Shown: positions 4,777-57,599 of the stretch, piece by piece | Layout of the letters: each line of letters begins with the position of its first letter | How positions within the stretch are numbered: the first letter of the stretch is position 1 | From: Escherichia coli O157:H7 | Lineage (GTDB): Bacteria; Pseudomonadota; Gammaproteobacteria; Enterobacterales; Enterobacteriaceae | Strand: one strand, 5' to 3' | Length of the DNA stretch: 64,000 bases | NCBI GenBank assembly: GCA_013403045.1 | Contig: GCA_013403045.1_3037.1 | Program-made: the position numbers and the translations under genes | Notes under the pieces: model-generated | Databases searched by the model: none | The model's input: the letters and a program-made list of their open reading frames with translations, nothing else | What the model was told of the DNA's origin: nothing

Positions 4777-5742
4777 TTATATTGCTCCTAATATTTTACT
4801 TTGCGAATTGACAATTCCTGTCATAGTATTAATATTTGAAATGCTTCCTGCAGTTCCCCCTAATCTACTAAGTCGTGAAAGCGAATTAGATAGTCCAGTA
4901 ACACCTCCACTATTTCCGAGAACGCTTTGAATACCATTTATAGTAGCAGATTCAAGCCATTCAAGGGCAGCTTGTCTATCAACTGCTCCAGCCTGCATGA
5001 CTCTATAAGCGAAAGTAACATCAAATGTAGTTATTTGGTTATCTCCATCATATGATAACTCAGGAGCACTCACAGATATTGGAATACAGCCAGTGAACAT
5101 CACCGCAGTATGTGGTAATCCATTGCGAGAATGAAGATTGACCTGAATATCTGCCTCGACATCTTGCGGTAAAGCACGCAATCCAGTTACTGGGTCTTGA
5201 ACAGCGTTAACCCAGTCTTGCATTGCACGATAGTTACAAGCTTCTGAATCCATTCTAAATGAAATAACCAAAGGGTCTAATTCTCTTCCAGTTATACGAA
5301 TATTAGGAGAATTATAGTTCCAGTCAGTTTCATAGGATAATCTATTCTCTGGCATTTTTACAGAATATATCATCAATCCAGATGAGTTATATGCCATGTT
5401 AAAGAAGTCAATTAAATATGTACCAACTGTAAATGAGCCTAATAAACTTTGAACTGTACGTTGACTCATGGCACCAATAAGATATTTACTAACCCCTGAT
5501 TTTCTTATCAGTTTTTGTGTGCCAGCGGTAATTAGCGTAGTAATTCCCTGATTAATATCACCTTGAGTTAATCCCAACCAATCTGAATTTAGACCCAAGT
5601 TATTATAAGCAAAGTTACTAATTGAGCTTATTAACGATGAGCTTTTAGTTGATGGAGTTGTAGCAAAAACACAGCTGAACATATTATTACGTTGGAAGTC
5701 TGCGTTTATTGCTTGATTATTAAATTCCTCTAAAGAATACAT
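4777..5742 (-). CDS. 54: baseplate tail-tube initiator gp54
   Basis: 321 aa (T4 gp54 about 320 aa); N-terminus MYSLEEFNNQAINADFQ; synteny. Confidence 0.9.
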   Translation of the reverse strand: MYSLEEFNNQAINADFQRNNMFSCVFATTPSTKSSSLISSISNFAYNNLGLNSDWLGLTQGDINQGITTLITAGTQKLIRKSGVSKYLIGAMSQRTVQSLLGSFTVGTYLIDFFNMAYNSSGLMIYSVKMPENRLSYETDWNYNSPNIRITGRELDPLVISFRMDSEACNYRAMQDWVNAVQDPVTGLRALPQDVEADIQVNLHSRNGLPHTAVMFTGCIPISVSAPELSYDGDNQITTFDVTFAYRVMQAGAVDRQAALEWLESATINGIQSVLGNSGGVTGLSNSLSRLSRLGGTAGSISNINTMTGIVNSQSKILGAI

Positions 5743-6836
5743 TAGAAAGTCCCCGTATATAAAGAAGCACGGTTTAACGTAATAATCTCTCTCATAGTAA
5801 TCTCGAGTGTAAAAGAACTTGGAAGGTTAGGAGCAATAGCTAATCCATTAAAGTTACCATTTGGTGTTTTATCAAATCTAATACTCTGTATTTGGCATGG
5901 ACCGAATACTTCAGTCTTTCCATCAAATTTAGAAGTTGCACCAAAGTTTTTCACCATCCAAATTGTCGGGTTTGAAACTACAAGAACGTTCGTTAAACTC
6001 GATGTCATTTTTTCAAATAACGTCTTGTTTTTAATCGCGTCTTCTGGCGTTAATGGTTCAATAAATGTAGAACGATACCACTCATCTAAATATCCTTTTA
6101 TTTCAGCAGCATATTGAGATTTACCAGTTTCACCGTAAGAAAAATAGTTAAAATACTGATAGATATTAATAATAGCCATTAAATCTTCTGTTGAGCGCGG
6201 AGTCAAATCCCAGGTGAACACTTTTGTTCTATTTTCAGCACCGCCATACATACTTCTAGCTGTTGTATAGATCTGTTCATTATTATCAGCCATTATTCCT
6301 TGTGTTATACTTTCAAGCGCACCAAATACTGCAGTTGAAGCCATATTACTTAGCACACCAGTAGCAGTACCTCCGCCTTTTGTAATAAGACTATCTTGAA
6401 CATCATTAAATCTATGTGATGACGTATCGACGTCAGATTTAGATCTAGGTAAAAGAATATTTGCAACAGGAACTTTACTTATTGTTCCTGAATTATTATC
6501 TGATATTAGTCCATTTGATAGTTTTGATACTGTATTACTGATAGTGTTTCTGGCTGTACGTAAAATACTCGAAGATGAAGAAGAGTAGTTAGATCTCATC
6601 GTTCTAAGACTTCCAGAATCCCTAGATGACATATTGTATGCAGTAAATAATAATCCATTCTTATATAGATCTGTTACCTGGAAGTCCCCTGTAGTGTCAT
6701 TACCACTAGCACGCCCAGTTGGAAACTGGGCTGTGTATGTTTTAGTTCCTACTTCTGATTTAGTACTCTGTCCGGCTGAAATTGTTTCACCGGACTTTTT
6801 AATTAAATCAGCAGTTATTTCTTTAACAATTGCCAT
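5742..6836 (-). CDS. 48: baseplate tail-tube cap gp48
   Basis: 364 aa, same as T4 gp48; synteny. Confidence 0.9.
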   Translation of the reverse strand: MAIVKEITADLIKKSGETISAGQSTKSEVGTKTYTAQFPTGRASGNDTTGDFQVTDLYKNGLLFTAYNMSSRDSGSLRTMRSNYSSSSSSILRTARNTISNTVSKLSNGLISDNNSGTISKVPVANILLPRSKSDVDTSSHRFNDVQDSLITKGGGTATGVLSNMASTAVFGALESITQGIMADNNEQIYTTARSMYGGAENRTKVFTWDLTPRSTEDLMAIINIYQYFNYFSYGETGKSQYAAEIKGYLDEWYRSTFIEPLTPEDAIKNKTLFEKMTSSLTNVLVVSNPTIWMVKNFGATSKFDGKTEVFGPCQIQSIRFDKTPNGNFNGLAIAPNLPSSFTLEITMREIITLNRASLYTGTF

Positions 6837-22260: not shown

Positions 22261-23070
22261 TTAGAAACGAGATGCGACTTTCGCATATACACTTACAATA
22301 TCTTCTGCACCTTGTGCAGATTTATCTTCTACAGCTTCAGTGACGAAATTCAGTCCGGCTGCTTCAGTATCAGGAGTATTTATACTCTCAGTAATAGTGC
22401 TTTCATCTTTATTAGATTTCTTCACCATTTCTACTATGGCACTCAATTTGCTTGAGAATGCATCTGAATAATCAATACCTTCGACCAGAGCAGAGACTTT
22501 TTCTTTTTGAGACTCAGTCAGATCTTTAGTACTTTCGCTCAATGCCACTTCACGCTGCACATAATTGATATATGCGTCACGCTTATTGAGTTCTTCGAAC
22601 AGACGAGCTGATTCTTCTTTATGTTCTTGCAGTTCTTCTTCCATTTCAGCTACAACATCAACTGATTCTTCTGGAACAACAACGTTGTGTTCAACGAAGA
22701 GCTCTTTCAATCCACCAAGCATGGATTCAAACAGTTCGGCTTTGATACCTTTATCTACTGCTAATTTATTTTCAGTGAGCCATTCTTTTGCAAGATGGTC
22801 AAGGAATTTAGAAGCTTGCTCAGCGATTTTCTTCTCAGCTTTTTCTTCTGCTTCTTCTTTATTTTTTTCTACTTCTTCTTCTGCTTTTTCAGCAATTTTA
22901 GCGATATGAGATTCAGCTAATTTAACGGCGTGCTGCTTGACGGTAGCTTCGAATACAGTGCCGAAAGTTTCTTTTGCTTCCGGAGAAATATTAACTGATT
23001 CGAAAATACTATCAAGAGCAACGGAAGCATCAATTTTCTGCGCTTCGGCAATCAGTTGTTCTTTAAGCAT
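22261..23070 (-). CDS. 22: prohead core scaffold gp22
   Basis: 269 aa as in T4; acidic coiled-coil composition. Confidence 0.9.
   Translation of the reverse strand: MLKEQLIAEAQKIDASVALDSIFESVNISPEAKETFGTVFEATVKQHAVKLAESHIAKIAEKAEEEVEKNKEEAEEKAEKKIAEQASKFLDHLAKEWLTENKLAVDKGIKAELFESMLGGLKELFVEHNVVVPEESVDVVAEMEEELQEHKEESARLFEELNKRDAYINYVQREVALSESTKDLTESQKEKVSALVEGIDYSDAFSSKLSAIVEMVKKSNKDESTITESINTPDTEAAGLNFVTEAVEDKSAQGAEDIVSVYAKVASRF
22377..22384 (-). promoter_or_regulatory. candidate late promoter (minus-strand TATAAATA) inside the 3' end of gene 22, upstream of gene 23
   Basis: plus-strand TATTTATA about 135 nt upstream of the gene 23 start. Confidence 0.35.
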
Positions 23071-23100: not shown

Positions 23101-23739
23101 TTATAACGCTTTTTTCATGGCCTCTGCGAGAGCCATATAGGCGTCATCGGCACTTGTATCGGCTTCCGCCGTCTGTGATTCTGTAATTTCCTTAGGAGTT
23201 ACCCATGCATCTGGAGCACTTGGACCCCATACTGCATCAACACCTACAGTTAATTTGAATCCTTCGTTTACGATACGATAACCTTTATTTGTGTCAGTCA
23301 ATGAACCTAATCCACGAGAAGAAACTCCTGGAATCCATCCGGCACGAATATTAGCTGCTAATTTATCTCCAGGACCATGGTCACCTTCAATAACACGAGC
23401 TCGTCCGTATACGTCATTTCCTTTCCACCACATATCTTCTATAATGATAGCGGCTTGCATCGGGTCAACATTAGCGCGTGGAGGATGATTTAATTCTCCG
23501 AGAGCTTGTTTAGTTAAAACTTGCTCATTAATATAGTCTTTTACCGCTTTTTCTAATATACGTTTTGGATAAAGACGTTTATTTCTATTGACGACTTCTG
23601 CTTGCATGAATATTCCTTCGATGTATAAACCAGGTTTTAAACCTAAGTCTTTCCCATCATGGGATTCAAGCATTGGCACACCATCAATAATTTCGCCAGG
23701 TTGACCCCAAGTTTCAATTAGCAATTGGGGTTCATTCAT
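23101..23739 (-). CDS. 21: prohead protease gp21
   Basis: 212 aa as in T4; synteny. Confidence 0.9.
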   Translation of the reverse strand: MNEPQLLIETWGQPGEIIDGVPMLESHDGKDLGLKPGLYIEGIFMQAEVVNRNKRLYPKRILEKAVKDYINEQVLTKQALGELNHPPRANVDPMQAAIIIEDMWWKGNDVYGRARVIEGDHGPGDKLAANIRAGWIPGVSSRGLGSLTDTNKGYRIVNEGFKLTVGVDAVWGPSAPDAWVTPKEITESQTAEADTSADDAYMALAEAMKKAL

Positions 23740-51940: not shown

Positions 51941-52680
<740 letters not shown>

Positions 52681-52709
52681 ATCTCATCAAAATTAATTAG
52701 GAAAATAAA

Positions 52710-52967
52710 ATGAAAACTTTCAAAGAGTTTGCTACAAAAACTACTATCACTGAATCTTCTCATGGTATGGAAGTAAAGCTTGGAATGGCTTTAGCTGAAG
52801 CTGAGCGTCTTTTCTCTCGTATTAAAGAACTTGCTGCTGCAGTCGATCCTTCGTCTTTTAAAGGAGACCAAACTAAAGTTAAAGCACTTTTAGCATTATG
52901 CTCTGACGCAGGAGAAATCGCTAAAAATGGTTCTAAGATGAAGAAACGATTAGAAGATTTAAAATAA
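52710..52967 (+). CDS. internal-protein-like small protein with capsid-targeting N-terminus
   Basis: 85 aa; N-terminus MKTFKEFATKTTITE resembles the T4 Ip leader MKTYQEFIAE with an I-x-E gp21 cleavage motif; at the ipI position next to 57B. Confidence 0.65.
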   Translation: MKTFKEFATKTTITESSHGMEVKLGMALAEAERLFSRIKELAAAVDPSSFKGDQTKVKALLALCSDAGEIAKNGSKMKKRLEDLK

Positions 52968-53010
52968 TTTCACAAAGTTGTTTACACGGGGTTTTAGTAG
53001 TGATACTATT
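52951..53010 (+). repeat. direct repeat copy B (60 bp) containing an early promoter
   Basis: same core as copy A; -35 GTTTAC at 52980-52985, -10 TACTAT at 53004-53009. Confidence 0.7.
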
Positions 53011-53037
53011 ACCCTATCAACTACTGAGGAGAATAAA

Positions 53038-53223
53038 ATGAAACGCTGTGAATTAATTCGAAATGTTGCTATTGCAATTTCTGCTTCCGCTTTTAGTTTT
53101 TCAATGTTTGTTGGATTTATATGCGGATTATTAACTACAGCAGAAAATGTATTTTCACTTGTAGTAGCATTTTTAATTGGTTTAATTGCTATCGTTATGG
53201 ATAAAATTTCTAAAGGTGAGTAA
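53038..53223 (+). CDS. small membrane protein (2 predicted TM helices)
   Basis: 61 aa from ATG with GAGGAG Shine-Dalgarno; hydrophobic; supplied ORF extends back through the promoter. Confidence 0.55.
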   Translation: MKRCELIRNVAIAISASAFSFSMFVGFICGLLTTAENVFSLVVAFLIGLIAIVMDKISKGE

Positions 53224-53224
53224 A

Positions 53225-53605
53225 ATGTATAAAGTATATGCAGATTATCAGGCTAATCCATCTGAAAAGCCAGATTGCCAAATTGGATGGGCTCATGATA
53301 CCTTGCTTGAAGCAGTAGATGCTGCTCAAAAATTAGGATATAGTTATGTAGATATTGTTCAACCTGGTGGAACAGTTATTACTCTTGAAGAGTTCAATAA
53401 CATTAAACCAAACTTTTTACTTTTTGCAGGTGATAATTATTATCCTCGCGGTGGATATGCTGATTTAATCGCGAAAGCCGCTACCGAAGATGAACTCCGT
53501 GACATTATCAAAGAAAATGAGAACAAACCAATGTATGGTTCTAATCGCTTTGATTGGTGGCAAATTGTAAATGCCCACACTCATACTATTGTTGATGAAG
53601 GGTAA
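53225..53605 (+). CDS. hypothetical protein (e.x region)
   Basis: 126 aa from ATG 53225 (MYKVYADY) with GGTGAG Shine-Dalgarno. Confidence 0.55.
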   Translation: MYKVYADYQANPSEKPDCQIGWAHDTLLEAVDAAQKLGYSYVDIVQPGGTVITLEEFNNIKPNFLLFAGDNYYPRGGYADLIAKAATEDELRDIIKENENKPMYGSNRFDWWQIVNAHTHTIVDEG

Positions 53606-53607
53606 TA

Positions 53608-53898
53608 ATGATTCTTTATGCTAAAGTATCGTCCATTGAAAATGGATATAAATATGATCAAGAAGCAGCTAAAGCCTTGATTGATGATTATGGCATTTTA
53701 ACATGTTTTGAAGTTGAAAAGGTTTACATTGACCGTTCATCTTCTCAGGTTAAATTAGTGAAGGAAGACCGTAAATTTAATACAGTAAATTTTGATTTCT
53801 TTATTGAAACAGAAAAAGGTCCTCTTGAATATGATATTTTCAAGAATCCTTTAAATCTTGAATGTATTAAATATACTTATATTAATGCAGCGTGGTGA
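53608..53898 (+). CDS. hypothetical protein (e.x region)
   Basis: 96-aa ORF tightly packed with neighbours. Confidence 0.55.
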   Translation: MILYAKVSSIENGYKYDQEAAKALIDDYGILTCFEVEKVYIDRSSSQVKLVKEDRKFNTVNFDFFIETEKGPLEYDIFKNPLNLECIKYTYINAAW

Positions 53899-53900
53899 AA

Positions 53901-54416
53901 ATGAATATTTGTTTAGGTACTACAATTCCGCAGGGTTACGTAATTGATGTCACTACCTGGGAAAATGATGGTGACAACTATAAAACTAAAACACTGTTTG
54001 GCGTAGAAGAGCATGAAATCTTACAGTTCCAATATCTTTTAAAGAAGTTTAAAAGCAGACATTCTAGTACTAAAGCTGAACGTTATTGTGGTAATGGCTT
54101 GTTCAGCGAGCAATCGCTTTTTATTTATGAATACTTGGTTGAAGGACTGTTCTCAGAACAACTTTATCCAGAATTCATTAAAAAGGTCTTTGATATAGAA
54201 GTTGACCTTGGTAATAAATCCGAAGAAGATGAAGAACGTGTATTTGACTTATTCTTTGTGAATGGTAATAAGATATTTGAAGGCCTTATTGATATTCTTG
54301 GTCATGCTTCTGAATATTATGACTATGATTTCTTGCGTGTAGTTGAGAGTGTTAAATACTCTTATATAGAAGAAGAAATTGTTTTGCCGACCGTTAAAAT
54401 GTTTAATTTGCTTTAA
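53901..54416 (+). CDS. hypothetical acidic protein (e.x region)
   Basis: 171 aa from ATG 53901; supplied ORF starts at an upstream GTG. Confidence 0.55.
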   Translation: MNICLGTTIPQGYVIDVTTWENDGDNYKTKTLFGVEEHEILQFQYLLKKFKSRHSSTKAERYCGNGLFSEQSLFIYEYLVEGLFSEQLYPEFIKKVFDIEVDLGNKSEEDEERVFDLFFVNGNKIFEGLIDILGHASEYYDYDFLRVVESVKYSYIEEEIVLPTVKMFNLL

Positions 54417-54654
54417 GAATTATTTGTTATTATTAACTCATACCGCACTGATTAATACCCTCTATCATCAGAGAAAGTCCAATAGGCAGAACAGGAGATT
54501 GGATTCTTTTAATTATGCTTGTTAATATTTTGACAGCAGCAATATTATCTGGGATATGGTGCGCGTTCATTGAAATGCCATGGCGGTTACGCAGACAGCA
54601 AAAGATTTTTGATGAAAAGAAATATACTCAAAATTTAAATAACTTTATCACTGA

Positions 54655-55642
<988 letters not shown>

Positions 55643-55646
55643 AGTT

Positions 55647-55676
55647 ATTTACTTTCTCCTAGAATTGTGATAGTAT
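55647..55676 (+). promoter_or_regulatory. early-type promoter (ATTTAC N18 TAGTAT)
   Basis: upstream of the internal-protein gene at 55737. Confidence 0.4.
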
Positions 55677-55736
55677 ATTCACAGTTACTTGAAGAGATAA
55701 ATTATTAATTAAAATATTTACATTTAAAGGATACAC

Positions 55737-56210
55737 ATGAAAACATATCAAGAATTTATTACTGAAGCAGCTATTAATTCTCAAATTATTGCTGAATCTT
55801 TTACTGATCTTTTGAAATTTAAAAAAGGTCAAAAAATCACTGCTGTATTGGATGATGGTACAGAAGTTGAGATGGATGTACAGGGATATAATTATGCAGT
55901 AGATGGAAAACTGTATAATAAATCTCATGCTAAATTTGATTCATTTGACGACTTTGTTAATACAGTTGAAGATGAAAAAACTCGTAGATCCATTGCAACT
56001 GGCGACGCTAAGGTTCTTATGGCACATGGCCATGAACGCATCCGCGCTAAACAGAATAAAATGGGCGAAGATAATTTTGCATTAGTTGGTTATCAATCTG
56101 GTAAACAAACTTATGGCTATCAGCGTACTGCTACCATGTATAACAAAAATGGTAAAATTGCCTTTGTGAATAGTAAAGGTTCTATTCAGTACGTTAAATC
56201 GTTCAAATAA
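55737..56210 (+). CDS. internal protein (Ip) family member with capsid-targeting sequence
   Basis: 157 aa; N-terminus MKTYQEFITEAAINSQIIAES with I-T-E and I-A-E gp21 cleavage motifs; adjacent to e as ipIII/ipII are in T4. Confidence 0.7.
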   Translation: MKTYQEFITEAAINSQIIAESFTDLLKFKKGQKITAVLDDGTEVEMDVQGYNYAVDGKLYNKSHAKFDSFDDFVNTVEDEKTRRSIATGDAKVLMAHGHERIRAKQNKMGEDNFALVGYQSGKQTYGYQRTATMYNKNGKIAFVNSKGSIQYVKSFK

Positions 56211-56315
56211 GCAAATAAGAAATATGGGAACAAGCTGGACCTCATGATTCTGTGAGGGATTCCCGCCAACCTGTAATAAGGTCGAGCCCAAGTGCGGTAA
56301 TGGGTAAATACAGAA

Positions 56316-56903
56316 ATGGACAATTCATGCGCCATGGAATGGCCCAAATTTAGAGAGAATAAAATGAGAACATTTTTAACTGGTCCTTATCTATCCCTGA
56401 TGAATGCTTTTACACACCATTCTGATGCTAGAGTAGAAGAAATTTGTAAAAACGATTATATCCCACCATTTGAAGAATTACTTAAACAGTATTGCACACT
56501 TCGACTAGATGGTGGACGTCAATCCGGTAAATCAATTGCTGTGACTAACTTTGCTGCTAATTGGTTGTATGATGGCGGAACAGTTATCGTTCTTTCTAAT
56601 ACTTCAGCTTACGCTAAAATTTCTGCAAATAACATTAAAAAGGAATTTTCGCGTTATTCTAATGATGATATACGTTTTCGTTTATTTACTGATTCTGTGC
56701 GCAGTTTTATTGGTAATAAAGGAAGCAAGTTCAGAGGTTTATCGCTTTCGCGAATTTTGTATATAATTGATGAGCCTGTCAAATCTCCTGATATGGATAA
56801 GATTTATAGTGTCCATATTGAGACTGTACACTACTGCTGTAATAGTAAATGTTGTATTGGTGGTATTACTCGTCCACAGTTTTTCGTAATCGGAATGCAA
56901 TGA
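56316..56903 (+). CDS. P-loop NTPase, function unknown
   Basis: 195-aa ORF; Walker A GGRQSGKS and Walker B-like LYIIDEP; C-terminal Cys cluster; start codon uncertain (56316, 56334 or 56364). Confidence 0.55.
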   Translation: MDNSCAMEWPKFRENKMRTFLTGPYLSLMNAFTHHSDARVEEICKNDYIPPFEELLKQYCTLRLDGGRQSGKSIAVTNFAANWLYDGGTVIVLSNTSAYAKISANNIKKEFSRYSNDDIRFRLFTDSVRSFIGNKGSKFRGLSLSRILYIIDEPVKSPDMDKIYSVHIETVHYCCNSKCCIGGITRPQFFVIGMQ

Positions 56904-57229
56904 TGACAGACACTCAGCTTTTCGAATATCTTTATTTTTCGCCAAAAACTATTAAAAATAAATTGGTGAATCATTTTGAAATTTTGGCAAATAACAACGT
57001 CTTGAGCGAATTTTATCCTAAGCAATACAAATTACAAAAAGGCGTATTCAAAGGATGCAGAGTTTTGTGTACTGCTCCTAATGCACGGCTAATGAATAAA
57101 ATTCCATATTTTACCATGGAATTTATTGATGGTCCTTTTAAAGGACTAATCACACAGAGTTTAATGGCATATGATTCTGAGCCATTTTTAATTAAAGAAC
57201 AATCTTGGATAAATTTATTTTCTAATTGA
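56900..57229 (+). CDS. hypothetical protein translationally coupled to the P-loop NTPase
   Basis: 109 aa from ATGATGA overlap with the upstream stop. Confidence 0.5.
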
Positions 57230-57236
57230 GGTTTAT

Positions 57237-57599
57237 ATGAAAGCATATCAAATTCTTGAAGGCACACATAAAGGTACTATTTATTTTGAAGATGGTATTC
57301 AAGCACGAATTATTGTCTCTAAAACCTTTAAAGAGGACTCTTTTGTAGACCCAGAAATTTTCTATGGTTTGCATGCCCGTGAAATTGAAATTGAGCAACA
57401 GCCTACAGTTAAAATTGAAGGTGGTCAACACCTGAACGTTAACGTTCTGCGTCGCGAAACTCTGGAAGATGCAGTTAAGCATCCGGAAAAATATCCGCAG
57501 CTGACCATCCGTGTATCCGGTTATGCAGTTCGCTTTAACTCTCTGACTCCGGAACAGCAGCGCGACGTTATCGCTCGTACCTTTACTGAGAGTTTGTAA
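57237..57599 (+). CDS. autonomous glycyl-radical cofactor (GrcA/YfiD-like)
   Basis: 120 aa; C-terminus [59 protein letters not shown] carries the glycyl-radical motif RVSGYAV; 3' half is GC-rich with host-like codons. Confidence 0.8.

Follow-up and report, generated by a model that had tools for sequence, protein, structure and literature searches.

A coding sequence annotated in related phages as Ip4 (ipIV) occupies 55737..56210 on the plus strand of the window (the whole 64-kb stretch of DNA that was analysed) and adjoins the lysozyme gene e, a conserved upstream neighbour located at 55148..55642 on the same strand by a Pfam Phage_lysozyme match and the annotation of phage AR1. As the original prediction had described it, the open reading frame listing gives the gene an ATG start, a product of 157 aa and a TAA stop, and the protein starts MKTYQEFITEAAINSQIIAES. 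A Shine-Dalgarno sequence, AAGGA, is found at 55727..55731 (plus strand), 5 nt ahead of the ATG, and is also kept upstream of T4 ipIII and ipII. Window positions 55000-57300 are 100% identical to Escherichia phage AR1 (AP011113.1), in which the open reading frame carries the label "Ip4 protein" (AR1_126). The protein is also 100% identical to T2 ipIV and to RB32 Ip4, and 99% identical to Ip4 of phage K3 (UniProt Q38388), the latter being the protein itself and the sole return of a structure search of viral models (BFVD). Q38388, an old accession, ties the protein to the original Ip4 name of T-even internal proteins. The Pfam family DUF7412 (PF24183) was matched with 319.4 bits against a gathering cutoff of 27, over positions 1-157 of 158, and PHROG 3155, "internal virion protein", matches the protein end to end (E 6e-102), while a scan against NCBIfam gave nothing above cutoff. 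Ip4 or ipIV annotations are present in AR1, T2, RB32, RB14, RB51, PST and others; Ip4 is already known and named, with wide annotation among T2-type phages. The members in K3, T2, RB32, RB14, RB51 and PST are the same protein in the same slot after e, with no substantive difference. There is good reason to regard 55737..56210 as encoding Ip4, a member of the interchangeable internal proteins of T-even phages, with the packaging, cleavage and injection in that description taken over from T4 IPIII and IPI.

The 94-nt spacer between e and Ip4 (55643..55736, plus strand) is an upstream regulatory cassette common to T4 ipIII and ipII, as seen in DNA alignments with the T4 e-ipIII and ipIII-ipII intergenic regions. 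It contains a putative sigma70/T4-early-like promoter on the plus strand, made up of TTTACT at 55648-55653, a 17-nt spacer and TGaTAGTAT (-10 at 55671-55676), which scores below the threshold of the consensus scanner. A hairpin, AATTGTGA/TCACAGTT, spans 55663-55686 and holds the -10 element in its loop; it was seen in the MFE fold, and by folding energy the whole region has a z-score of -0.94, which is not significant alone. An exact motif search placed the late-promoter motif TATAAATA upstream of e at 55114 and 55127, and found no exact copy in the e-Ip4 spacer. From the final codons of e through the spacer to the Ip4 leader codons, the DNA follows the T4 e-ipIII junction nearly base by base, and the same unit aligns upstream of T4 ipII. 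The T4 homology ends at about 55769, at the leader codons, and resumes at 56226..56363 (plus strand), 15 nt past the Ip4 stop, with DNA aligned to the T4 denV/vs.8 junction. The gene order in T4 is e - ipIII - ipII - denV - vs.8, and that of the window is e - Ip4 - vs.8, with approximately 456 bp of Ip4-specific DNA (about 55770-56225) replacing a T4 segment of approximately 1.5 kb that holds mature ipIII, ipII and denV. Nowhere in the 64-kb window was denV found, nor the mature part of ipI, ipII or ipIII. The interval from e to vs.8 (55643-56225 in the window, 4940-6416 in T4) accordingly carries no denV, the gene for endonuclease V of pyrimidine-dimer repair, in keeping with the classical finding of a higher UV sensitivity in T2-type phages than in T4.

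Between ipIII and ipII, T4 (5720-5834) has a copy of the last e codons (ACTTGGGACGC...) directly after the ipIII stop, followed by the same unit of promoter, hairpin, Shine-Dalgarno sequence and leader that precedes Ip4. The repeated cassette thus takes in part of the e 3' end, and the arrangement suggests that the tandem internal-protein genes arose via duplication or recombination of the cassette unit. PeSL (promoter-early stem-loop) cassettes have been proposed to drive modular shuffling in T4-type genomes (PMC2839356). The unit upstream of Ip4 resembles them in being a repeated intergenic element that flanks an interchangeable accessory gene, with a sigma70-like promoter, a stem-loop over the -10 element and a Shine-Dalgarno sequence, and in offering homology for cassette exchange. 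It differs from them in that the repeat also takes in the last e codons and the leader codons, and in that its stem is AT-rich and not of the GGGG/CCCC type.

Downstream of Ip4, the approximately 140 nt at 56226-56366 are about 97% identical to T4, where they are annotated as the N-terminus of vs.8, and are GC-richer than their surroundings. In the window, a TAG at about 56349 and an indel of 8 nt interrupt the T4 frame of this N-terminus, and the AR1 annotation places the vs.8 start at 56316 in another frame. Because the PHROG match to vs.8 starts only at residue 19, translation probably begins at the ATG at 56364 (MRTFLTG...). A structured RNA in this conserved segment was considered and rejected, the folding z-score being -0.04. 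Inside Ip4, two A6 runs, TTTAAAAAAGG and GTCAAAAAATC, are present at 55823-55850. A preprint on phage contingency loci dealing with T2 homopolymer runs of at least six recorded no slippage mutant of ipIV in any of five populations (PMC12633550), so there is no sign of phase variation at these runs.

A tblastn search of the phage collection found Ip4 in 471 records and IpIII in 261. At least 99% identity to Ip4 was seen in 291 of the 471, including T2, RB32, RB14, RB51, wV7, PST and SH7, and a further 160, T4-like phages that infect Klebsiella and Salmonella, share 60-80% identity; the homolog of a Serratia phage is 61% identical. The order e then Ip4 is kept in three lineages, namely T2 (e - ipIV), the Klebsiella Jiaodavirus and Serratia phage SP1. 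In Klebsiella phage 311F the order is e - Ip4 - ipII and Ip4 abuts the e stop codon, and in SP1 e overlaps the Ip4 homolog, while Shfl2 and some Klebsiella phages have IpIII and Ip4 side by side. The slot after e is conserved across the three lineages, and the number and choice of internal-protein genes in it vary. Late expression of Ip4 together with e is supported by their tight coupling in two lineages and by the two exact late promoters ahead of e in the window. Against the ortholog of a Klebsiella phage, pS is 0.73 (near saturation), pN is 0.19 and dN/dS is about 0.085; with the Serratia ortholog the values are 0.84 for pS and 0.27 for pN. Across 15 family members 49 columns are invariant. 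Ip4 is a real protein under strong purifying selection (dN/dS about 0.09). The original prediction had counted internal proteins among the most variable loci of T-even phages, which holds for the gene content of the locus but not for Ip4 itself, in view of this dN/dS and the 291 near-identical records. A profile search of 1.8 billion representative proteins returned seven matches only, of which three are full-length homologs of approximately 35% identity from metagenomes, without genomic context; these three were not present in the phage collection.

Three parts can be told apart in the 157-aa precursor. Residues 1-10 (MKTYQEFITE; 55737..55766, plus strand) form a capsid-targeting sequence that ends in a gp21-type site, ITE before A; residues 11-20 (55767..55796, plus strand) are a variable linker propeptide that ends in a second candidate gp21 site, IAE before S; and residues 21-157 (55797..56207, plus strand) make up the predicted mature domain of 15.5 kDa and pI 9.3, which is basic, with 22 K+R. 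The leader differs from that of T4 IpII and IpIII, MKTYQEFIAE in both, at one residue only (9/10 identical), which agrees with the near-exact copy of a T4 internal-protein leader that had been predicted. ITE (residues 8-10) and IAE (residues 18-20) are the two gp21-type motifs read from the sequence at the outset, and the protein has no other [LIV]xE motif. The depletion of [LI]xE in the mature domain is not significant, since 61% of shuffled sequences likewise contain none. The likeness of the leader to that of T4 is, judged from the alignment, a matter of homology and not chance, because approximately 130 nt of upstream DNA and leader codons align almost base for base with T4. In T4 IPIII, residues 4 and 7 determine targeting and residues 8 and 10 processing, gp21 cuts after L/I-x-E, and the first 10 residues alone suffice to package foreign proteins (PMC9026906). 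The four corresponding residues, Y4, F7, I8 and E10, are all identical in Ip4.

Across the family alignment, M1, K2, F7, E10 and E20 are each at least 90% conserved, and residues 11-17 vary freely. Nearly all members have a strict [LI]xE at the first site. At the second site P3 is a hydrophobic residue throughout (I/L/M/V); the strict motif is present in 6 of 13 full-length members, the others having M or V at P3. The distant metagenomic homologs start M-N-F-x-x-F-L-N-E-S, and two of them carry a second LNE before S further along. The leader has thus been kept as protein, including in the distant homologs, and the cleavable targeting leader therefore appears from the sequences to be an ancestral, selected feature of the Ip4 family and not a relic of recombination. 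A six-frame scan of the 64 kb for the leader pattern found one other open reading frame only, at 52710..52967.

The mature part of Ip4 was compared with the internal proteins of T4, whose reference translations are IpI (95 aa, leader MKTFKEFTSTTTPVSTITE), IpII (100 aa, leader MKTYQEFIAEARVGAGKLE) and IpIII (193 aa); the lengths given for the last two in the original prediction were right. Homology of mature Ip4 to any of the three was rejected, as all BLASTP matches of residues 21-157 had E>0.2, and hhalign of the Ip4 family profile against the mature T4 proteins gave a probability below 1% for all three (IpII 0.14%, IpIII 0.14%, IpI 0.8%). PHROG matches of Ip4 to other internal-protein families span the leader only. 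The alignment to IpI, IpII and IpIII that had been proposed as a check therefore shows no full-length identity to IpII or IpIII, with the leader alone in common, and bears out the assignment of Ip4 as an internal-protein family member that is neither of these, its mature part being without similarity to either. Ip4 resembles IpIII and IpII in its locus beside e, the upstream regulatory cassette, the near-identical targeting sequence and the gp21 site after E10, and IpII further in having a second site 9-10 residues beyond the first (E10, then KLE19); it differs from both in that the mature domains are unrelated in sequence and the lengths unlike. T4 IpI, with its mature form IPI*, is likewise small, basic and compact, and has an N-terminal propeptide of 19 residues that is cleaved off, against a predicted 20 in Ip4. 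IPI*, which is packaged and injected and inhibits the GmrSD enzyme of E. coli CT596, is the model on which the presumed working of Ip4 is based. IpI differs from Ip4 in its leader subtype (MKTFKEF...), in its locus next to 57B and in its unrelated mature sequence of 76 aa, against 137 aa.

The structure model of full-length Ip4 was mediocre (pLDDT 73). Modelling the mature domain by itself, on an alignment extended by the distant homologs, gave pLDDT 91.0 and pTM 0.85. The predicted fold consists of a beta-hairpin (precursor residues 33-38 and 43-54), three helices (about 70-103) and four C-terminal strands, and the model indicates with high confidence that mature Ip4 folds as a small SH3/Sm-like barrel with a helical insert. 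The sole structural neighbours of the model are barrels of the SH3, Sm, Tudor and L19 type, many of them nucleic-acid binders. A search of solved structures with the model gave no close resemblance and no enzyme-like fold, and by sequence no relative of solved structure was found below E 0.5. The lack of an enzyme-like fold fits a binder or inhibitor.

The components with which such a leader would act are encoded elsewhere in the window. The gp21 prohead core serine protease, the expected cutter of the Ip4 leader, is at 23101..23739 on the minus strand (Pfam Peptidase_S77, E 1.5e-111), and the gp22 scaffolding core protein, thought to bind the targeting sequence (PMC9026906), is at 22261..23070 on the minus strand (Pfam T4_CASP, E 3e-90); gp23 and gp20 are also encoded. 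The window thus has what is expected of a T4-type internal protein, namely a targeting sequence, a gp21 motif, the genes for gp21 and gp22, and an internal-protein locus next to e. From the precedent of T4 IPIII and IPI we infer the packaging, cleavage and injection of Ip4 as follows. The precursor would be made late, most probably by read-through from the late promoters of e, and the putative promoter of the cassette itself possibly aids expression. Residues 1-10 would carry the protein into the gp22 scaffolding core of the prohead, where gp21 would cut the leader off after Glu10 and probably also after Glu20, and the freed, basic and compact mature protein of about 15.5 kDa would stay with the DNA in the head and be ejected with it into the cell. 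Because all four targeting and processing residues of IPIII are identical in Ip4, this course of prohead-core targeting, cleavage after Glu10 and probably Glu20, head retention and ejection with the DNA is very likely. The designation "candidate injected effector" in the original prediction is, by the same analogy, a reasonable reading.

The contrary view, that the leader is a relic of recombination and Ip4 an ordinary cytoplasmic accessory protein that is left unpackaged, appears highly improbable. The leader codons do sit in a repeated DNA cassette and were possibly carried along by recombination, the putative promoter upstream is of the sigma70/early-like kind, and Ip4 is absent from the virion protein list of SH7, a phage with an identical Ip4. 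That list, obtained by LC-MS/MS, is a very shallow data set of 14 proteins and was the sole accessible proteome, and a literature search found no direct report of Ip4 in virions. Against a relic, the leader and both glutamates are kept in comparisons in which synonymous sites are saturated, the leader is kept in homologs of 35% identity, and the Klebsiella and Serratia phages keep it though their Ip4 abuts e without an intergenic cassette; in T4, moreover, the 10-residue sequence alone is enough for packaging (PMC9026906).

Packaging and injection of Ip4 being the preferred reading, its role in the cell was considered in the light of the other internal proteins. Ip1, Ip2 and Ip3 each inhibit one distinct type IV restriction enzyme of the GmrSD family, with GmrSD-ECOR21 the target of Ip2 and GmrSD-ECOR17 that of Ip3, and the same inhibitor role has been proposed by the authors for all genes of the two internal-protein loci (PMC12373910). 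Removal of the targeting sequence does not stop IPIII from acting in the cytoplasm (PMC9391042). If Ip4 works as Ip1, Ip2 and Ip3 do, it may bind and block a single, specific first-line defence of the host, a suggestion that we put forward tentatively, and its most likely target would then be a modification-dependent (type IV, GmrSD-like) enzyme subtype that attacks glucosyl-hmC DNA. Put in full, Ip4 is possibly an injected inhibitor whose fold, an SH3/Sm-like barrel carrying an insert of three helices, has not been seen before, and it would disarm a host defence so far unconnected with any internal protein, either an unsampled GmrSD subtype or another early-acting system, although our confidence in this stays on the low side. 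When ip4-10 were assayed against a panel of GmrSD variants there was no reproducible inhibition (PMC12373910, Supplementary Fig. 9), and the "ip4" of Silas et al. 2025 likely has the same sequence as the Ip4 of the window because of the K3 Ip4 entry. T2 is restricted by both GmrSD-ECOR17 and GmrSD-ECOR21 (PMC12373910) despite having an identical Ip4, which counts against an anti-GmrSD role. Ip4 is also near-invariant within Tequatrovirus, which is not the pattern expected of a fast arms race.

These last observations bear on two other readings of the role. Ip4 could be mainly a structural, DNA-associated component of the head that stands in for IPIII in T2-type phages, neutralising DNA charge or aiding core assembly or DNA packaging and ejection, and would then be no dedicated defence inhibitor. 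In its favour, Ip4 fills the first slot after e in AR1 and T2, which in T4 is that of IpIII, and IpIII is missing from the window; the mature protein is basic in pI and in its 22 K+R; and the barrels that are its only model neighbours include many nucleic-acid binders. T4 internal proteins touch DNA phosphates via lysines (PMC3012670), IPIII mutants assemble heads more slowly and give smaller bursts (PMC9026906), and both the very strong sequence conservation and the negative results of the GmrSD panel would suit a housekeeping protein. We nevertheless regard this role as unlikely. Inhibition of a defence other than GmrSD, for example an early-acting sensor of incoming modified DNA or of the injection event, seems a little less plausible again. 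Against it, nothing found speaks positively for such an alternative, and all three characterised internal proteins hit GmrSD, a family of extreme diversity of which only 15 groups were sampled (PMC12373910). The reading of Ip4 as an injected inhibitor of an unsampled GmrSD subtype or of another early-acting system would, if true, help to explain differences in host range between T2/AR1-type and T4-type phages, including on O157:H7.

As a discovery the gene carries little weight, since the name Ip4 dates from the 1990s and is annotated in hundreds of genomes; a search of the literature found neither a published function nor a demonstrated virion location. Its interest is that of an orphan in an active field, in which targets have been found for Ip1-3 and in which Ip4 is more widespread than IpIII among sequenced phages. 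Ip4 lends itself to experiment thanks to its conserved leader and high-confidence model, and, as AR1 and its relatives are used against E. coli O157:H7, knowing the target of Ip4 could help to predict host range.

The second open reading frame found by the leader scan (52710..52967, plus strand) lies at the ipI locus, between 57B and trna.4-like open reading frames. It encodes a protein of 85 aa that matches PHROG 3499, "internal head protein" (E 1e-49), and has the leader MKTFKEFATKTTITE followed by S; the mature sequence of this protein bears no relation to T4 IpI. The DNA upstream of the gene, with a promoter-like GTTTAC and a hairpin over the -10 element, aligns with that upstream of T4 ipI. 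Between this gene and e, at window positions 54470/54471, the sequence matches AR1 at 100% on both sides with 6,062 bp of the AR1 record missing in between; window 52600-54470 corresponds to AP011113.1 71827-69957, and window 54471-57300 to 63894-61065. The missing AR1 stretch (63895-69956) holds the rest of ar1_129, e.3-e.8 and ar1_136/137, and presumably, from the T4 map, the tRNA cluster as well; ARAGORN and Rfam searches of the 64 kb gave no tRNA and no RNA family. The contiguous arrangement at 54470/54471 was absent from every phage record in the collection, and the junction could mark a deletion variant of natural or laboratory origin, or an artefact of the assembly or of the window. In the T2 RefSeq record (NC_054931.1, 1442-2413), nudE is given a CDS of 972 nt that reads through e and covers all of it, apparently through an error of annotation or a frameshift and not for a biological reason.
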